Sequence record: NZ_CP087668.1 | DNA length: 5,596 nucleotides | From: a plasmid | Reading direction: 5' to 3' (one strand) | Shown here: in pieces, positions 1-5,596 of the stretch | How the letters are laid out: the number at the start of each line of letters is the position of its first letter | Position numbering within the stretch: the first letter of the stretch is position 1 | Notes under the pieces: model-generated | Told to the model about the DNA's origin: nothing | The model's input: only the letters and a program-made list of their open reading frames with translations | Databases searched by the model: none | Made by a program: the position numbers and the translations under genes

Positions 1-225
1 ATGCTTGCTATCCGGTTATCTGATGAGATTGAGTCCCGTCTGGACTCGCTGGCGAAGCAAACCGGCAGAACAAAGACGTTTTATGCGCGGGAAGCAATAC
101 TGGCGCATCTGGAAGACCTGGAGGATTATTATCTTTCAGCAGAAACTGCTGCACGCGTTCGCCGTGGTGATGAAGCAGTGCATTCGTCTGAAGACGTGAG
201 GAAGTCACTTGGTCTGGACGATTAA
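1..225 (+). CDS. Ribbon-helix-helix antitoxin, ParD/RelB-like (74 aa). It may be complete, since the ATG is at position 1, but the window edge could truncate the true 5' end.
   Basis: Open frame 1-225 with a TAA stop at 223-225. The N-terminus MLAIRLSDEIESRLDSLAKQTGRTKTFYAREAILAHL fits an RHH fold: a beta strand of alternating hydrophobic residues followed by two helices. The acidic C-terminal tail is typical of a toxin-binding domain. It sits immediately upstream of, and overlaps, a RelE/ParE-like ORF, which is the classic type II TA arrangement. Confidence 0.7.
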   Translation: MLAIRLSDEIESRLDSLAKQTGRTKTFYAREAILAHLEDLEDYYLSAETAARVRRGDEAVHSSEDVRKSLGLDD

Positions 226-475
226 CTATTCCGATCGGGCGCTCAAATCGTTACGCAAGATGGACAAACAGAACGCACGACGGATTGTGGATTTTATGAG
301 TTTACGCATTGCAGTTGCTGCCGATCCTCGCCAGTCAGGGAAGCCGCTCAAAGGTGAGCTGGGCGAGTTCTGGCGCTATCGGGTGGGAGATTATCGCGTT
401 CTGTGTGAGATCCGAGATGACGAGCTTGTTATCCTTGCCGCCACGATTGGACATCGCCGCGAAGTTTACGACTGA
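209..475 (+). CDS. RelE/ParE-family type II toxin (88 aa), probably started at TTG 209
   Basis: The protein VWTINYSDRALKSLRKMDKQNARRIVDFM...LKGELGEFWRYRVGDYRVLCEIRDDELVILAATIGHRREVY has the RelE/ParE N-terminal pattern (W-x-I-x-Y-S-x-x-A-x-K-x-L-x-K-x-D) and the C-terminal YR(V/I)xY...I(L)xIxHR motif. The only start that keeps the conserved N-terminus is TTG at 209-211. It is preceded by a GAGGA Shine-Dalgarno at 198-202 with a 6-nt spacer, and it overlaps the antitoxin stop by 17 nt. The stop is TGA at 473-475. Confidence 0.72.
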   Translation: MVWTINYSDRALKSLRKMDKQNARRIVDFMSLRIAVAADPRQSGKPLKGELGEFWRYRVGDYRVLCEIRDDELVILAATIGHRREVYD

Positions 476-498
476 AGCCCGCTATGCGGGCTTTTTTG
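476..498 (+). terminator. Rho-independent terminator of the TA operon
   Basis: AGCCCGC (476-482), loop TAT, GCGGGCT (486-492), then a T6 run at 492-497, directly after the toxin stop. On the - strand there is no U-run after the hairpin, so it is unidirectional. Confidence 0.6.
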
Positions 499-525
499 AT
501 GCCGACAACAGGTATTATGGTAAAT
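498..525 (+). other. Candidate XerC/XerD recombination core (cer/psi-like) with a 6-bp central region
   Basis: TTATGGTAAAT at 515-525 is an 11/11 match to the XerD-binding arm of ColE1 cer. The central region is CAGGTA (509-514). The left arm GATGCCGACAA (498-508) matches the XerC-arm consensus GGTGCGTACAA at 8 of 11 positions. No ArgR-box-like accessory sequence was seen in the roughly 180 bp on the XerC side, which is occupied by the toxin gene. Confidence 0.45.
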
Positions 526-544
526 ACTCGACTAACTACGTGTT

Positions 545-940
545 CTACTGTTTGTCGGTTTTAGTTAACCAGCAGGTTGTCTTAACGATAATGTAGCCGT
601 TATTTTTAACTAATAAGGTCATATTGTTAACGTCAGGCATAATAAAAGACATTATGGCCTCAGAGTTATCATCAGAAGCAGCTCTCTGCATTACTACTTC
701 GATTCCCTTTTCTTTGAATCTATAAGTATCCAGTTGCCTATTAAACTTAGAAAGACCTACAACCATACTTAGTTTGTTATCTTTAACAGTAAGAGATGCT
801 TCCTGAGTACCATTACATCGGTAGTAAGCGGTGTAACCGTCAGCAAAAGATCGACCGGGGAATATAAATGCTAGGAACGCAATTAACCAATACATAGTTG
901 AGAATCTTGGTATTACACATTTCACTATCCTCTCTTTCAT
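545..940 (-). CDS. Exported small protein (131 aa) with a cleavable signal peptide and two Cys in the mature part. It is possibly an MliC/PliC-like periplasmic beta-barrel; that assignment is speculative.
   Basis: The ATG is at 938-940 on the - strand with a weak GGTGA Shine-Dalgarno upstream. The N-terminus MKERIVKCVIPRFST-MYWLIAFLAFIF-PGRSFA|DGY is a positively charged n-region, a hydrophobic core and an A-x-A-like cleavage site, with no lipobox Cys. The mature protein has Cys in YYRC near its N-terminus and in TTCWL near its C-terminus, consistent with one disulfide. It lies 20 nt downstream of the previous gene within the AT-rich operon. Confidence 0.6.
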   Translation of the reverse strand: MKERIVKCVIPRFSTMYWLIAFLAFIFPGRSFADGYTAYYRCNGTQEASLTVKDNKLSMVVGLSKFNRQLDTYRFKEKGIEVVMQRAASDDNSEAIMSFIMPDVNNMTLLVKNNGYIIVKTTCWLTKTDKQ

Positions 941-960
941 TTTTCGTTCACCATACTTTG

Positions 961-1506
961 TTATCTGATTTTTAATTTTTCTATTTTATAAACCAAGTCT
1001 CTACCAAAAAGGCGAAAATTATCCTCAAATAATAATAATTGTTTAAGAACATCCATGAAAGCAGCTGCTTCACCCTCAGTTATGGGAGCTACTCTATATA
1101 ACATATAACCTGAGTTAAGGGTTTCTTTTATACTTTCTTCAATGCTCATTATAAATATTAGTGGATTATCATTTTTCTTCCCCCATGGGTTTCTAATTAA
1201 TCCTTCGATGTACTCAGGTCCTTTGCGTCCTATTGCCTGCGCAATATTTTTTATTTCATCTGCGTGAGGGCTTTGTTGTACAGCTTTGTTTATGCCTGCT
1301 TGAGTGATTTTCAGAGACTCTACACCGTGTATGTTGTATGAGATAAAATGTAATAAATTAAGATGCAATGCAATTAATCCATTTTTGTTTACATCTGAGT
1401 ATTTGGATAAAAAACGTAATGAAGTGTTAACTCTCCCTTGAAGCCTAACAATTGGGAGTGCTGCCTTGTATATTTCCTTCTCCGTTAAATACCGTTTAAA
1501 AAACAT
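961..1506 (-). CDS. Hypothetical cytoplasmic protein (181 aa), the central gene of the AT-rich cargo operon. It is a candidate toxin or effector partner of the upstream RHH protein.
   Basis: Complete ORF with its ATG at 1504-1506 on the - strand and a GGAGGCGGAG Shine-Dalgarno about 5 nt upstream. The stop is TAA at 961-963. There is no transmembrane segment or signal peptide. I see no Walker A, HEPN Rx4-6H, Fic or nucleotidyltransferase motif. The A+T-rich codon usage matches its two neighbours. Confidence 0.65.
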   Translation of the reverse strand: MFFKRYLTEKEIYKAALPIVRLQGRVNTSLRFLSKYSDVNKNGLIALHLNLLHFISYNIHGVESLKITQAGINKAVQQSPHADEIKNIAQAIGRKGPEYIEGLIRNPWGKKNDNPLIFIMSIEESIKETLNSGYMLYRVAPITEGEAAAFMDVLKQLLLFEDNFRLFGRDLVYKIEKLKIR

Positions 1507-1531
1507 AATTCTCCGCCTCCGTATAGCGTGC

Positions 1532-1858
1532 CTATTTTATTTCGTCGTAAAACTTAGCTCTGAAATATTCCTTTAGAACCATCATGTCATTAATAATTGA
1601 ATCTATCTCATCCATTTTTTCTTGGTATTCTTTTAATGGTGAAGGGAGCGGTAACTCAATATTTGAAAAGTGATTGGCGAGATAGGGATCAAGGTTTCTC
1701 ATCCATTCAGGCTTTTCGCCAATGCGTTCTTCAACTGAAAGTGAACCTGATAATCTCTGGTTAATAAGATCACTTAGACTCATTTTGGTTTTATTCGAAA
1801 GCCGTTGTAAGGATTGCTTTAATCCTATATCTAGCATGATATTTGTTCTTTCTCTCAT
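1532..1858 (-). CDS. Ribbon-helix-helix (ParD/CopG-like) DNA-binding protein (108 aa), the first gene of the AT-rich operon. It is a candidate antitoxin or autoregulator.
   Basis: The N-terminus MLDIGLKQSLQRLSNKTKMSLSDLINQRL closely parallels the RK2 ParD RHH pattern LTIDMTDQQHQSLKALAALQGKTIKQYALERL. The ATG is at 1856-1858 on the - strand with AAGGGGGGG just upstream. An alternative ATG lies 7 codons in. The gene ends 25 nt before the next one. The C-terminal half is acidic and helical, as expected for a partner-binding domain. Confidence 0.65.
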   Translation of the reverse strand: MRERTNIMLDIGLKQSLQRLSNKTKMSLSDLINQRLSGSLSVEERIGEKPEWMRNLDPYLANHFSNIELPLPSPLKEYQEKMDEIDSIINDMMVLKEYFRAKFYDEIK

Positions 1859-1935
1859 TACCCCCCCTTGCTATTGCGTTTTTTGTTGCGCACAAAGCTA
1901 CCATTGCGCATTAAGAAACGCAATAAAAAAGGAGG
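1859..1935 (-). promoter_or_regulatory. Putative sigma70 promoter plus operator repeats for the AT-rich operon
   Basis: Read on the - strand: TTGCGT, 17 nt, TAGCTT, about 35 nt, then ATG. The region carries ATTGCG at 1874-1879, CGCAAT at 1919-1924 as an inverted pair, and two copies of the palindrome TGCGCA at 1888-1893 and 1906-1911. These overlap the -35/-10 and are typical of RHH-repressor operators. Confidence 0.4.
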
Positions 1936-2091: not shown

Positions 2092-2197
2092 AAACGAAAA
2101 AACCGCCTGGGGAGGCGGTTTGATCGAAGGTTAAGTCAGTTGGGGAACTGCTTAACCGGGTAACTGGGTATACGAGACCGCAGATACCAAAACTGTT
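2092..2197 (-). ncRNA. RNAI, the antisense copy-number-control RNA (about 105 nt)
   Basis: The - strand start acagttttggtatctgcg parallels pMB1 RNAI acagtatttggtatctgcg. The 3' end is a hairpin CCGCCT-CCCC-AGGCGG (2103-2118 on the + strand) followed by a U6 run. The whole RNA is complementary to the 5' end of RNAII. Confidence 0.75.
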
Positions 2198-2960: not shown

Positions 2961-3013
2961 GGAGCGACCCGGAAAACTTTTCCGTGCCGTCCGGCGTTTG
3001 CGAAGGAGGGATA

Positions 3014-3190
3014 ATGCAGAAGCCGAAGAAGAAGCCGCTCGTCGTAAAAAAAAGATCCTGGCATCCGGCAGTGATGGCAAATCTGATGCGTCAGGCACAG
3101 GAGGAAGATTACCGCCGGGAGCAGATGGCAGAGCTTGAGCGTTCAGCCCGGTCACATTTTGCGGATATCGGAGGAGAGGATGGCGGTTAA
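3014..3190 (+). CDS. Small basic ORF (58 aa) upstream of mbeC and translationally coupled to it. It is hypothetical.
   Basis: An AAGGAGGG Shine-Dalgarno lies 5 nt before the ATG at 3014. The protein MQKPKKKPLVVKKRSW... has a Lys-rich N-terminus and an acidic C-terminus. Its TAA stop at 3188-3190 overlaps the mbeC ATG at 3180. Confidence 0.4.
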   Translation: MQKPKKKPLVVKKRSWHPAVMANLMRQAQEEDYRREQMAELERSARSHFADIGGEDGG

Positions 3191-3524
3191 GCGTACCCGT
3201 TTTTTAGGTATCCGGGTGACCGATGGGGAGTACCAGCAGCTGCTGGAGCGCTGCAATGGAAGGCAACTGGCGGTGTGGATGCGGGAAACCTGTCTCGATA
3301 CGCGCCCGGCGCGGTCGTTGCGGCTGCCGTCCATCGATCCGGTTTTGCTGCGCCAGCTTGCCGGGATGGGGAACAACCTCAACCAGATCGCCCGGAAAAT
3401 TAACGGCGGCCAGTGGTCAGGCGCTGACCGGGTTCAGGTGGTGGCCGCGCTGATGGCCATTGATGCCGAACTCGAGCGGCTGCGGCATGCCGTGCTGGAA
3501 AAGGGGGCAGACGATGATCGTTAA
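3180..3524 (+). CDS. mbeC: MobC/MbeC-family relaxosome accessory protein (114 aa)
   Basis: The ATG at 3180 is directly preceded by GGAGGAGAGG. It carries the hallmark MobC-family motif LRQLAGMGNNLNQIARKIN and an N-terminal RHH-like segment KRTRFLGIRVTDGEYQQLLERC. The length matches ColE1 MbeC at about 115 aa. The stop at 3522-3524 overlaps the mbeA start. Confidence 0.85.
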   Translation: MAVKRTRFLGIRVTDGEYQQLLERCNGRQLAVWMRETCLDTRPARSLRLPSIDPVLLRQLAGMGNNLNQIARKINGGQWSGADRVQVVAALMAIDAELERLRHAVLEKGADDDR

Positions 3525-5049
3525 GTTTCATCCGCGAGGGCGAGGCGGCGGTGCCGGGCCGGTGGATTATCTGCTGGGGAAAGACCGCCAGCGCGACGGG
3601 GCCATCGTCCTGCAGGGAAAGCCGGAGGAGGTCCGGGAGCTTATCGACGCCTCGCCCTACGCCAAAAAGTACACCTCCGGCGTCCTGTCTTTTGCTGAAC
3701 AGGATTTACCGCCCGGCCAGCGTGAAAAGCTGATGGCGAGCTTCGAGCGGGTTCTGATGCCCGGACTCGATAAAGACCAGTACAGCGTGCTGTGGGTTGA
3801 ACACCGGGACAAGGGGCGGCTGGAACTGAATTTTCTGGTACCGAACACGGAACTGCTGACCGGCAGGCGTCTCCAGCCGTACTACGACCGGGCAGACCGT
3901 CCGCGCATCGATGCGTGGCAGACCGTGGTGAACGGGCGACTGGGGCTGCACGACCCGAACGCACCGGAGAACCGGCGCGCGCTGGTGACGCCATCTTCGT
4001 TACCCAAAACGAAGCAGGAAGCCGCAGAGGCTATTACGCGGGGCTTACTGGCCCTCGCCTCGTCAGGGGAGCTTAAAACGCGTCAGGACGTCACTGAGGC
4101 GCTGGAAAGCGCAGGTTTTGAGGTCGTGCGCACCACAAAGAGCAGCATCAGCATTGCCGACCCGGACGGAGGGCGAAACATCCGACTTAAGGGAGCCATC
4201 TATGAACAGTCTTTTAACGCTGGCGAAGGACTTAGAGCAGAAATCGAAAGCGCAGCAGCAGAGTACCGGCGAAATGCTGAAAGCCGCATTCAGCGAGCAC
4301 GAGAAGTCTGTCAGAGCGGAACTGAGCGAAAGCGGGAAGAGAATCAGCGCCGCCATCCGCGCCCACGAGCAGGGTATGAGCGCGGCCATGCAGTCGAACC
4401 GCCTGAGCGTGATGCGTATGGTCGGGCGGACATGGCTGACCATCACGATGGTGTCAGGACTGCTGTTCGCCAGCCTGAGCGGGGTGTTGTGGTATCAGGG
4501 GAGCTTGATAGCGTCAAATCTGGCCGAAATCGACCGGCAGAACGCAGCGCTGTCGAAGCTGAACGCGAAGACCTGGGGCGTGACGTACCTGGAAGACAGC
4601 AACGGACGTTTTCTGGTGCTGCCGAAGGGGACGGCCGTAGACAGGACGCAGAGCTGGACGGTCGGGAACGGGCGGTCGAAGCAGAACGCGCTGAGACTGG
4701 TGAAGGAGTAAGTGCCGATGACCGAGCTGGAAAAACAGTTGCTGAGCGCATTAGAGCAGCTACAGCAGGACTACTCGAAAAGGCTGGACGAGTGGGAGAG
4801 CGCCTTCGGGGAATGGCGGAAAATGTCAGGGCTTATGCAACGGGAGAACGCGGCGCTGAGCGAGCGCGTGACGCGCTTGAGTCAGCAGGTGGAACGCTTG
4901 AGCGGGCAACTGCAGCGTTTGAGCCGGTAGTGCAGCGTCATGAGATGGCCGTGGCCGCAGAACGGGCGCACGAGCAACGGCAGCACGAAAAGGAACTGAC
5001 GGAAGCGCGTTCCCGGCAGCGAAGCTATGACGGTCCGTCGCTGGGCTGA
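3514..5049 (+). CDS. mbeA: MOB-HEN family relaxase MbeA (511 aa)
   Basis: The ATG at 3514 is preceded by AAGGGGG. The N-terminus MIVKFHPRGRGGGAGPVDYLLG places the catalytic Tyr at residue 19 (codon 3568-3570). WVEHRDKGRLELNF gives His97, Glu104 and Asn106, the ColE1 MbeA HEN metal-binding motif. The C-terminal half is low-complexity and rich in Arg, Glu and Ala, as in ColE1 MbeA. The stop is TGA at 5047-5049. Confidence 0.9.
   Translation: MIVKFHPRGRGGGAGPVDYLLGKDRQRDGAIVLQGKPEEVRELIDASPYAKKYTSGVLSFAEQDLPPGQREKLMASFERVLMPGLDKDQYSVLWVEHRDKGRLELNFLVPNTELLTGRRLQPYYDRADRPRIDAWQTVVNGRLGLHDPNAPENRRALVTPSSLPKTKQEAAEAITRGLLALASSGELKTRQDVTEALESAGFEVVRTTKSSISIADPDGGRNIRLKGAIYEQSFNAGEGLRAEIESAAAEYRRNAESRIQRAREVCQSGTERKREENQRRHPRPRAGYERGHAVEPPERDAYGRADMADHHDGVRTAVRQPERGVVVSGELDSVKSGRNRPAERSAVEAEREDLGRDVPGRQQRTFSGAAEGDGRRQDAELDGRERAVEAERAETGEGVSADDRAGKTVAERIRAATAGLLEKAGRVGERLRGMAENVRAYATGERGAERARDALESAGGTLERATAAFEPVVQRHEMAVAAERAHEQRQHEKELTEARSRQRSYDGPSLG
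4202..4711 (+). CDS. mbeB: MbeB-like mobilization protein (169 aa), nested within mbeA in a different frame. It is predicted to be membrane-associated.
   Basis: The ATG at 4202 follows an AAGGGAG Shine-Dalgarno at 4189-4195. It is a long open frame in a 62% GC region. A hydrophobic segment TWLTITMVSGLLFASLSGVLWY is present. The size matches ColE1 MbeB at about 172 aa, as does the nested position. Confidence 0.7.
   Translation: MNSLLTLAKDLEQKSKAQQQSTGEMLKAAFSEHEKSVRAELSESGKRISAAIRAHEQGMSAAMQSNRLSVMRMVGRTWLTITMVSGLLFASLSGVLWYQGSLIASNLAEIDRQNAALSKLNAKTWGVTYLEDSNGRFLVLPKGTAVDRTQSWTVGNGRSKQNALRLVKE
4718..4930 (+). CDS. mbeD: MbeD-like small coiled-coil protein (70 aa), nested within mbeA. In ColE1 this gene is associated with entry exclusion.
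   Basis: The ATG at 4718 follows a GAAGGAG Shine-Dalgarno at 4702-4708, straight after the mbeB stop. It is in the same frame as mbeB and separated from it by a single stop. The heptad-rich sequence LEKQLLSALEQLQQ...LSQQVERLSGQLQRL suggests a coiled coil. Confidence 0.6.
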   Translation: MTELEKQLLSALEQLQQDYSKRLDEWESAFGEWRKMSGLMQRENAALSERVTRLSQQVERLSGQLQRLSR

Positions 5050-5105
5050 AATGCAGGAAAACAGGGTTCTCATCGGGCATTTACGCTGAAACCGGATGTC
5101 ATTCA

Positions 5106-5131
5106 CCTGGCTGCATGGCTATGCAGCCAGG
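5106..5131 (+). other. Perfect 11-bp-stem hairpin downstream of mbeA. It may be a weak terminator or a protein-binding site.
   Basis: CCTGGCTGCAT, loop GGCT, ATGCAGCCAGG. Only a short, interrupted T tract follows (TAAAATTTATCT). Confidence 0.3.
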
Positions 5132-5273
5132 TAAAATTTATCTGTCGCGAACGGGGCGGTTTATCGGGTGGTTTGTTGCCGGTTTTACCTGACTGCCACC
5201 CCGTTCGCGGCGAACCCGTCCGGGGCGGTGCGGGCAACGGGTGTTATGTTTAATCAGCGTGAACGGCAGATAC

Positions 5274-5297
5274 AAAAAAGCCCCGGAGGGCTTTTAA
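5274..5297. terminator. Bidirectional rho-independent terminator
   Basis: A6-GCCC-CGGA-GGGC-T4. On the + strand the stem is followed by TTTT, and on the - strand by TTTTTT. It closes mob-region transcription on one side and the small - strand unit (5306-5506) on the other. Confidence 0.6.
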
Positions 5298-5305
5298 CTA
5301 CTGAC

Positions 5306-5434
5306 TTATTTTTTTGAAGATTTGCTGGGTTTCAATTTGTCAGTATTTCCCGGCGTTTTTTTATTGTCACGCTGGCGTTTATCAGGTTCCCCTGTTGAAT
5401 CGGCAATTCGTTTCGGACCCGGCTTAAGACCCAT
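5306..5434 (-). CDS. Possible 42-codon highly basic small ORF (MGLKPGPKRIADSTGEPDKRQRDNKKTPGNTDKLKPSKSSKK). It may instead be a noncoding transcript, and confidence is low.
   Basis: The ATG at 5432-5434 on the - strand has AAGGA 8 nt upstream. A - strand promoter-like TTGATA (+ strand 5501-5506), 17 nt, TATATC (+ strand 5478-5483) lies upstream. The bidirectional terminator sits directly downstream. The sequence is low-complexity, so it may be spurious. Confidence 0.2.
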   Translation of the reverse strand: MGLKPGPKRIADSTGEPDKRQRDNKKTPGNTDKLKPSKSSKK

Positions 5435-5596
5435 AATCGTTATCCTTTCAATAGTTAAGAGGAAAGCCCTCAAGCTAGATATATTGACCGCGTTACGGAT
5501 TATCAAGAGGGGCTAACAAGATTATTTTTTGTTCTTTTAGGTTGATTGTGGTACTGTTGATATACATGTATAGCAAATGGTGTTCGGGAGGTTTAT

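Follow-up and report, generated by a model that had tools for sequence, protein, structure and literature searches.

A relBE cassette bounded by XerC/XerD cores and probably inserted in the cer-like resolution site of a ColE1-type plasmid

IMEX elements encode no recombinase of their own and lie inserted at a host Xer site, where they are flanked by two directly repeated hybrid cores. In the pdif modules of Rep_3 Acinetobacter plasmids, the cores are inverted (C/D then D/C). The excerpts of PMC7399989 describe these Acinetobacter modules as short units, often toxin–antitoxin (TA) pairs, bounded by 28-bp XerC/XerD cores that lack accessory DNA, and IMEX elements are mentioned in an excerpt of PMC6764390. 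At ColE1 cer and pJHCMW1 mwr, XerC starts the recombination reaction, which halts at a Holliday junction that other processes resolve (PMC2699498). A 2024 survey of Enterobacteriaceae found accessory sequences at all small-plasmid Xer sites (bioRxiv 10.1101/2024.04.05.588136). Moreover, mosaics of ColE-type plasmids formed through Xer and oriT recombination have been reported by Tran et al. 2012 (qnrB19 plasmids) and Zakharova et al. 2002 (pECL18/pKPN2), as recounted in excerpts of PMC6764390, PMC10454011, and PMC8683028.

The locus described here resembles each of these systems in part. We propose that a 28-bp sequence at positions 498 to 525 (site A) is probably the right junction core of an 867-bp relBE cassette (5238 to 5596 plus 1 to 508), which was inserted by XerCD into the cer-like resolution site of a ColE1-type plasmid. 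Like the pdif modules portrayed in the excerpts of PMC7399989, this cassette is found in many plasmid contexts with its boundaries at cores. Unlike those modules, its cores are direct repeats, both reading from XerC to XerD on the plus strand, a full cer-type site, accessory DNA included, forms one of its flanks, and its hosts are ColE1-type plasmids of Enterobacterales. The similarity to IMEX elements lies in the absence of an own recombinase and in the apparent insertion at a host Xer site between two direct hybrid cores. However, the target of IMEX elements is chromosomal dif, whereas the cassette is associated with the cer-type sites of plasmids and carries relBE and a small open reading frame (ORF) only. 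Judged from sequence comparisons, site A departs from the cer definition and the cassette from the pdif and IMEX definitions, and the cassette nevertheless appears to work like all three.

The window, meaning the whole 5,596-nt stretch of DNA that was analyzed, is a circular ColE1-type plasmid in its entirety. It is matched from end to end, at 99.5 to 99.9% identity, by circular records of 5,598 to 5,601 bp, including the Citrobacter koseri ATCC BAA-895 record NC_009794.1 and many Klebsiella pneumoniae plasmids, and the cassette region is 100% identical in an E. coli plasmid that is exactly 5,596 bp long. Contigs L019, L021, and L023 continue straight from window position 5596 into position 1. 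The record was opened at the relB start codon, and the halves of one locus consequently sit at opposite ends of the window (Table 1). An Rfam scan of the window returned RNAI alone and detected nothing at the resolution site or in its vicinity. Two records considered as deletion variants, L001 (NZ_CP129774.1) and L002 (NZ_CP083510.1), were rejected because both are linear partial contigs.

Table 1. Features of the plasmid, given in window coordinates.
Feature	Position	Strand	Basis
relB-type antitoxin gene (RHH, DUF6290/TraY)	1–225	+	NCBIfam antitoxin_RelB_like, E 3e-31; Pfam TraY, DUF6290
RelE/ParE-family toxin gene	209–475	+	Pfam ParE_toxin, E 3e-15; NCBIfam RelE_StbE
relE terminator hairpin and T-run, adjoining the site A XerC arm	474–497	+	dG -15.5 kcal/mol, z -5.1
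Site A XerC arm GATGCCGACAA, linked to the cassette	498–508	+	arm type follows the relE terminator in cassette copies
Site A central region CAGGTA (509–514) and XerD arm TTATGGTAAAT (515–525)	509–525	+	linked to downstream DNA
AT-rich variable-region genes (ORFs 545–940, 961–1506, 1532–1858)	526–1858	-	GC 0.33–0.38
RNAI	2094–2195		Rfam
mob genes	~3000–5050		
cer-like accessory sequences of site B, XerC side	5098–5226	+	alignment to ColE1 cer
ARG-box-like palindrome TGCATGGCTATGCA	5112–5125	.	motif match
Site B core GGTGCGGGCAA CGGGTG TTATGTTTAAT	5227–5254	+	top Xer score in the window
Left part of relBE cassette: site B central region and XerD arm, bidirectional terminator, small ORF, relBE upstream region	5238–5596	+	co-travels with 1–508 in other backbones
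Terminator-like hairpin, left cassette end	5276–5295	-	dG -13.2 kcal/mol, z -3.3
Small basic ORF in cassette, 41–42 aa	5306–5431	-	annotated WP_000523570.1 in pB1021, pSYM11

Site A has the same core architecture as cer and mwr, with an 11-bp XerC arm and an 11-bp XerD arm separated by a central region within the expected 6 to 8 bp. A first-pass annotation made from the DNA sequence had called it a cer-like Xer core on the grounds of an exact copy of the ColE1 cer XerD arm, a 6-bp spacer, and an XerC arm matching at 8 of 11 positions. We read the ColE1 cer core from NC_001371.1 (3909 to 3938) as GGTGCGTACAA TTAAGGGA TTATGGTAAAT, and all three details agree with it: the XerD arm, an 11-mer that occurs once in the window, is identical, the XerC arm shares 8 of its 11 positions with cer, and the spacer has 6 bp where cer has 8 bp. 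A degenerate pattern for the whole core, allowing up to three mismatches, was found at exactly two sites in the window and at none in 200 shuffles. Under a two-arm weight matrix derived from other Xer sites, site A scored 26.1 bits and the second site, site B, scored 32.4 bits, whereas the best of 200 shuffles reached 20.2 bits and the third-best real match in the window, at 14.6 bits, is noise. These scores bear out the annotation and indicate that site A is a genuine XerC/XerD recombination core. Its XerC arm (GATGCC...) is atypical, differing at position 2 from every reference arm, and 3 of its 11 positions vary among cassette copies that are ~95% identical; strong constraint on this arm is not evident from these comparisons.

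Site A differs from cer and mwr in that the accessory DNA expected on the XerC side, which in cer amounts to ~180 bp and includes an ARG box ~110 bp away from the core, is missing. The DNA upstream of site A is occupied by relE, whose stop codon ends at 475, and by the relE terminator, a hairpin that is conserved in all cassette copies examined. A simple consensus scan for terminators missed this hairpin, which folding confirmed. No ARG-box-like motif is present upstream of 498, and the sole TGCAT-N4-ATKCA match outside the AT-rich genes is the palindrome near site B. Because accessory DNA and an ARG box are missing, site A alone does not constitute a cer-type site. On its other side, the first AT-rich ORF past site A ends at 545, and the GC content falls to the range given in Table 1. 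The annotated absence of accessory sequences thus holds for the DNA upstream of 498, whereas such sequences do exist 867 bp to the left, beside the second core.

Indeed, site B and site A form direct repeats 867 bp apart across the record junction, flanking relB and relE, and site B is the stronger core of the two. The ~130 bp to the left of site B align over their full length with the accessory region of ColE1 cer, wherein the window and ColE1 agree in 84 of the 115 columns (73%) that extend from the ARG box up to the XerC arm. The palindrome TGCATGGCTATGCA is the only perfect ARG-box match in the window, and it is located 115 bp upstream of the site B XerC arm compared with 113 bp in ColE1. 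In seven other plasmids, TGCAT-N4-ATGCA is found at exactly 115 bp, within accessory DNA that is otherwise ~45 to 50% identical to that of the window. This retention of spacing across divergent accessory DNA argues that the palindrome is a working ArgR site. Thousands of ColE1-like plasmids in PLSDB match the accessory region and the core, and these matches stop at the XerD arm. With a core, accessory DNA, and a correctly spaced ARG box, site B together with its left flank is a full homologue of cer, and the joints deduced here coincide with the position that XerC cleaves, as XerC-only exchange would predict (PMC2699498). The cer-homologous accessory DNA and the conserved spacing of the ARG box indicate that site B is the present cer-type dimer-resolution site of the plasmid. 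Two features set it apart from cer, namely that both cores in the window have a 6-bp rather than an 8-bp central region and that the resolution site of this plasmid appears to be split by an insertion.

To delimit the presumed insert, PLSDB was queried with a segment that began in the accessory DNA, crossed the record junction, and ended shortly beyond site A. In ~20 plasmids with different backbones, the match (~95% identity) is limited to the stretch that starts with the first base of core B and stops at the last base of core A. Among these are 3.2-kb E. coli plasmids (e.g., pSYM11), the 3.7-kb K. pneumoniae plasmid pB1021, a 3.45-kb Enterobacter plasmid, and plasmids of 13 to 45 kb. The same boundaries are seen when the two junctions are aligned. 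In a sample of 13 loci picked from BLAST lists, the unit of 865 to 869 bp between Xer cores is present in at least seven plasmid contexts besides the window, and a script recovered this core-to-core spacing for 11 of 12 cassette copies. Thus, the same genes with a core at each boundary reside in different replicons, as represented by the window, L005/L007, L006, L008, L010/L011/L030, L012, and L029. In all contexts examined, cer-type accessory DNA lies to the left of the cassette. The cassette contains the RelB/RelE pair, the conserved ORF of 41 to 42 amino acids, and two terminators, and searches against Pfam and NCBIfam found no recombinase gene within it. The genes for the RHH antitoxin and the RelE/ParE-fold toxin are adjacent and overlap by 17 nt, as is typical of type II TA systems.

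The cassette copies reveal where the two sites exchange partners. In 11 copies, the relE terminator is followed by arms of the type GATGYYGAYAA, whatever DNA is located downstream. Eight of these copies belong to the commoner cassette subtype (L005, L006, L007, L008, L010, L011, L029, and L030). Among the eight, site B exhibits four XerC arms, GGTGCGGGCAA, GGTGCACGCAA, GGTGCGGCCAA, and GGTGCCGATAA, each going with its own type of accessory DNA, and the right half of site B (CAGATG TTATGTTCAAT) is constant, as is the cassette. At site A of the same copies, the arm directly after the relE terminator is always GATGYTGAYAA, followed by CGGATG TTATGGTAAAT, CGGATG TTATGTTTAAT, CGCCTT TTATGTTCAAG, or CGGGTT TTATGGTAAAT, and each of these four combinations of central region and XerD arm tracks its own downstream DNA. 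Sequences to the left of the cassette (accessory DNA and XerC arm) therefore go with the backbone, and those to the right (central region, XerD arm, and downstream DNA) go with the neighbor. This partition places the joints at the boundary between XerC arm and central region, which suggests that ancestry switches in both sites at the position cut by XerC. Joints at precisely this point are expected if XerC alone conducts the exchange and the junction is processed independently of Xer (PMC2699498).

Plasmids with an unoccupied site were identified among relatives of several carriers. In two contigs from gut metagenomes (L014 and L018), accessory DNA, GGTGCACGCAA, CAGGTA TTATGGTAAAT, and the same AT-rich genes as in the window follow one another, with relBE absent, and L003 has a similar arrangement. 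Since these contigs share the right half of site A and differ only in the XerC arm and in all that precedes it, the central region, XerD arm, and right flank seen in the window must once have been the right half of a complete site. Site A would then be a hybrid in which the XerD half and the central region survive from the original resolution site of the plasmid. An early suggestion that a dimer-resolution site was remodelled by insertion of the TA module essentially fits these right halves. A second comparison involves L004 (pFF1043_1), in which accessory DNA of the window type is followed by one core and a downstream segment X, and L008 (pVA569-7), in which the same accessory type is followed by core B, 869 bp with relBE, core A, and segment X. 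The two plasmids are ~89% identical in each flank, and a 25-bp stretch of core that L004 has as a single copy is duplicated in L008. Homology between L004 and the window itself breaks inside site B.

For pB1021, the predicted unoccupied target consists of its accessory DNA, GGTGCGGGCAA, and CGGATG TTATGGTAAAT. This sequence is matched at 100% through the XerD arm in several 2.2-kb plasmids of Salmonella and Enterobacter and at 98.8 to 100% in several 2.1- to 3.1-kb plasmids of other genera. Inspection by eye confirmed that L025 carries the predicted target, and L026 combines related accessory DNA and a single core with the downstream genes of pB1021. A pre-existing Xer site that becomes two direct hybrid cores, as seen with IMEX elements, is thus represented in both states by L004 versus L008, by L025 and L026 versus pB1021, and, for the right junction, by L014 and L018 versus the window. 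When we simulated the unoccupied site of the window's own backbone by joining its accessory DNA to the AT-rich genes, no PLSDB record covered at least 80% of it.

Exchange at site B is captured in two further contigs. In L015, the whole plasmid is opened at site B, such that a foreign arm is joined to CGGGTG TTATGTTTAAT on one side and GGTGCGGGCAA is joined to CAGATG TTATGGTAAAT and foreign DNA on the other. This arrangement is indicative of a reciprocal exchange at site B, with both joints at the boundary of XerC arm and central region. L016 looks like a cointegrate formed at site B with a second ColE1-like plasmid, although the 150-bp accessory repeat may instead have given rise to a chimeric assembly there.

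These observations are consistent with a mechanism in which a non-replicating circle with a single hybrid core, made up of a central region between the XerC and XerD arms of the cassette, recombined with the site of the plasmid. XerC would have exchanged one pair of strands, and the resulting Holliday junction would have been completed by replication or another host process. One product, site B, would consist of host accessory DNA and XerC arm followed by the cassette central region and XerD arm, and the other, site A, of the cassette XerC arm followed by the host central region and XerD arm. Dimers would presently be resolved through site B, wherein the accessory DNA and XerC arm of the host act with the XerD arm of the cassette. 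Lacking accessory DNA on the XerC side, site A probably serves poorly or not at all as a substrate, and this low activity would keep the cassette in place. Rare exchange between A and B would free the cassette for transfer to the cer site of another plasmid. The deletion product predicted for such an event is GGTGCGGGCAA/CAGGTA-TTATGGTAAAT-ACTCGAC, and the predicted circle junction is GGGCTTTTTT-GATGCCGACAA/CGGGTG-TTATGTTTAAT-CAGCGTG, where the slash denotes the joint.

Several observations fit poorly with insertion in one step. The window and L012 carry one cassette subtype but differ in the central region of site B, which reads CGGGTG in the former and CGGATG in the latter; CGGGTG is also found in L004, as in the backbone of the window. 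The 79%-divergent relative L013 has relBE after the cer site, without the right-hand core, and the right site of L027 carries a different, ColE1-like XerC arm. In addition, cer-type recombination normally requires accessory DNA on both partners (PMC7399989; PMC2699498), and the model leaves unexplained how a circle that lacks accessory DNA would integrate into a cer-type site.

Some of the same observations would suit a different history, which we regard as unlikely. Fusion of two ColE1-like plasmids at cer might have been followed by deletions that left, of the second plasmid, only relBE and a core as an inert remnant that spread by ordinary descent and by single-site exchange at B, never excising or integrating. 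Exchange at B alone is what L010, L011, and L030 display, given that they share the cassette and downstream DNA and differ in accessory DNA and XerC arms, and L015 and L016 have the appearance of cointegrates formed at this site. L013, with relBE beside a cer site and no right core, could represent the precursor state, and the left cassette end resembles the DNA that usually follows cer in L025. However, within one cassette subtype the downstream partner at site A changes at least four times, always at the boundary of XerC arm and central region, and the empty and occupied pairs differ by exactly the cassette and one duplicated core. The repeated changes of partner and the existence of these pairs require that site A itself has been a crossover point more than once.

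Quite improbable is the pdif-like scheme offered in the first-pass annotation, wherein the AT-rich genes are the module captured by Xer recombination and site A is their point of entry. The AT-rich block does begin right after the XerD arm, and its left boundary is always an Xer core, joined to relBE in the window and to three accessory or backbone contexts in L003, L014, and L018. Its recurrence with several left partners suggests that exchange at the core re-linked the block. Nevertheless, the weight matrix detected no third Xer-like core in the window, including at the origin-side end of these genes, and the block from ~498 to ~2930, comprising the AT-rich genes and the same origin, is continuous in L003, L014, and NZ_CP093857.1. 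In PLSDB, the genes occur in two arrangements only, those of this plasmid family and of L003-type plasmids, to which the metagenome contigs L014 and L018 add two contexts. The lack of a core at the other end and the continuity with the same origin argue that the AT-rich genes are not an Xer-bounded cassette. The core-bounded unit is instead relBE. One XerC-arm-like sequence, GTTGCGCACAA (~1888 to 1898), was rejected, as it is without an XerD partner and lies inside an inverted repeat upstream of the cargo operon.

The AT-rich genes fill the usual variable slot, which lies between the cer XerD arm and the origin and holds a colicin operon in L008 and the exc genes in ColE1. Their block ends next to a bom/oriT-like sequence, and in this respect 498 to 2930 resembles the segments exchanged in the Xer/oriT mosaics, at least as these are portrayed in the excerpts of the citing papers. 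According to the same excerpts, one Xer site and oriT delimit a block in those mosaics, whereas here two Xer cores lie inside the resolution site. None of the three AT-rich ORFs matches a Pfam or NCBIfam model, and a PADLOC match to an LmuA fragment was dismissed as weak (E 0.005, 29 residues).

Far less credible is the notion that site A is an independent, dif-like resolution site that depends on FtsK. Its length of 28 bp, 6-bp central region, and lack of accessory DNA are features of sites that recombine with FtsK, but such sites are almost confined to large replicons, and the Xer sites of small plasmids all have accessory DNA (bioRxiv 10.1101/2024.04.05.588136). Moreover, a complete cer-type site is already available 867 bp away, and the hybrid ancestry of site A accounts for it without assigning it a function. 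If the bare core on this 5.6-kb plasmid is an insertion junction rather than a stand-alone site, the apparent exception to the rule derived from the 2024 survey would be explained. That the sequence resembles an Xer core by chance, for which the short length of the match is the one argument, can be dismissed, since none of 200 shuffles attains the score of site A and the comparative data (the L014 and L018 joints and the cassette copies) reveal a recombination joint.

If Xer-mediated insertion of the cassette is correct, the dimer-resolution site of a ColE1-type plasmid can serve as an entry point for a selfish TA cassette, and the same route of entry has been proposed for resistance genes on small clinical plasmids. 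The sequencing paper for pB1021 lists a TA system in the variable region, and flanking Xer cores are not mentioned around any of the three Xer mentions in the excerpts of that article (PMC5864857). Within our incomplete coverage of the literature, no published description of the relBE cassette was found; the mechanism belongs to an established type of gene shuffling, and the cassette itself is without a description that we could find. One small cassette in many backbones, with joints at the XerC cleavage position, constitutes a natural data set for positions of Xer exchange. Paired Xer cores could also be flagged as cassette boundaries by annotation pipelines and plasmid-typing schemes.

A more speculative extension, which we consider possible and rather doubtful, is that the relBE unit is a still-active, self-contained mobile cassette specialized in the cer-type sites of multicopy Enterobacterales plasmids. 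Such a plasmid-targeting counterpart of IMEX elements would move as a non-replicating circle through XerC-first recombination, supply a working XerD arm so that dimer resolution persists, and carry an addiction module that makes its loss costly. The conserved 42-amino-acid basic ORF might help recombination at a site that lacks accessory DNA. This ORF has no Pfam or NCBIfam match, and between the window and the other cassette subtype it differs by two synonymous and no non-synonymous codon changes. Among 5,426 complete E. coli genomes, no copy of the cassette is chromosomal, at dif or elsewhere, and all 27 copies that were found reside on plasmids. In one further carrier, L012, the cassette keeps GATGCCGACAA CAGGTA, and the XerD arm is interrupted by a Tn3-family inverted repeat.

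Homology of the window to L003 (a plasmid carrying the same AT-rich genes), to L014 (a gut-metagenome contig with these genes) and to NZ_CP093857.1 stops at 2928–2930. Because this end lies beside a bom/oriT-like sequence, the segment 498–2930 behaves as a block extending from the bare Xer core to the oriT region, with the same limits as in the published Xer/oriT model.

Features of the window plasmid
Feature	Window position	Strand	Remarks
bom/oriT-like sequence GTGTATACTGGCTTACTATG	2861–2930 region	minus	adjoins homology end
Small ORF, 41–42 aa	5306–5431	minus	inside the relBE cassette; conserved, rich in lysine and proline
Three AT-rich ORFs (131, 181 and 108 aa)	545–1858	minus	
Inverted repeat ATTGCGTTT ... 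AAACGCAAT	1868–1925		just upstream of the AT-rich operon start (ORF 1532–1858, minus strand)

Two gut-metagenome contigs, L015 (9440–9632, 3700–4060) and L016 (3500–3760, 9120–9420), contain the entire window plasmid, opened at the core with cer-like accessory DNA (5227–5254) and fused to other sequences. The two joints of L015 are reciprocal, and both fall at the boundary between the XerC arm and the central region. Both contigs look like Xer-mediated cointegrates; for L016, a possible alternative is an assembly chimera spanning the accessory region, which is repeated there.

In 2.2-kb plasmids with a single cer-type core, the DNA downstream of this core, CCAGCTGATTGGCAGGTATAAAAAAAGCCCCGCAGGGC (L025, 480–540), is similar to the left end of the relBE cassette (window 5255–5300). 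This resemblance suggests that the cassette derives from a plasmid that simply carried relBE on the downstream side of its cer site, the arrangement seen in the divergent relative L013. Between the two cassette subtypes, the small ORF within the cassette differs by two synonymous and no nonsynonymous codon changes, and large Klebsiella and Salmonella plasmids carry stretches with ~76% DNA identity to it. In another cassette carrier, the 92-kb IncFII plasmid pJBIWA005_2 (1480–1540), a Tn3-family terminal inverted repeat, GGGGTTTGAGGGCCAATGGAACGAAAACGTACGTTAAGG, lies in the right core, inserted directly after the TTA of the XerD arm, which is reminiscent of published transposon insertions in Xer loci.

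The products of the three AT-rich ORFs had no match in Pfam or NCBIfam and no credible match in PADLOC. The N-terminal hydrophobic segment of the 131-aa protein ends in SFA|DG, which suggests that this protein is exported. The inverted repeat upstream of the operon encloses TTGCGCA/TGCGCA motifs, is kept in L003 and may serve as an operator for the product of the operon's first gene.

A search of genome-assembly contigs also returned short contigs (L019–L024) with 98.6–100% identity to this enterobacterial plasmid in assemblies of Streptomyces luteosporeus, Streptacidiphilus monticola, Flammeovirga aprica, Vibrio agarilyticus, Shewanella intestini and Limoniibacter endophyticus, where they most likely represent contamination.
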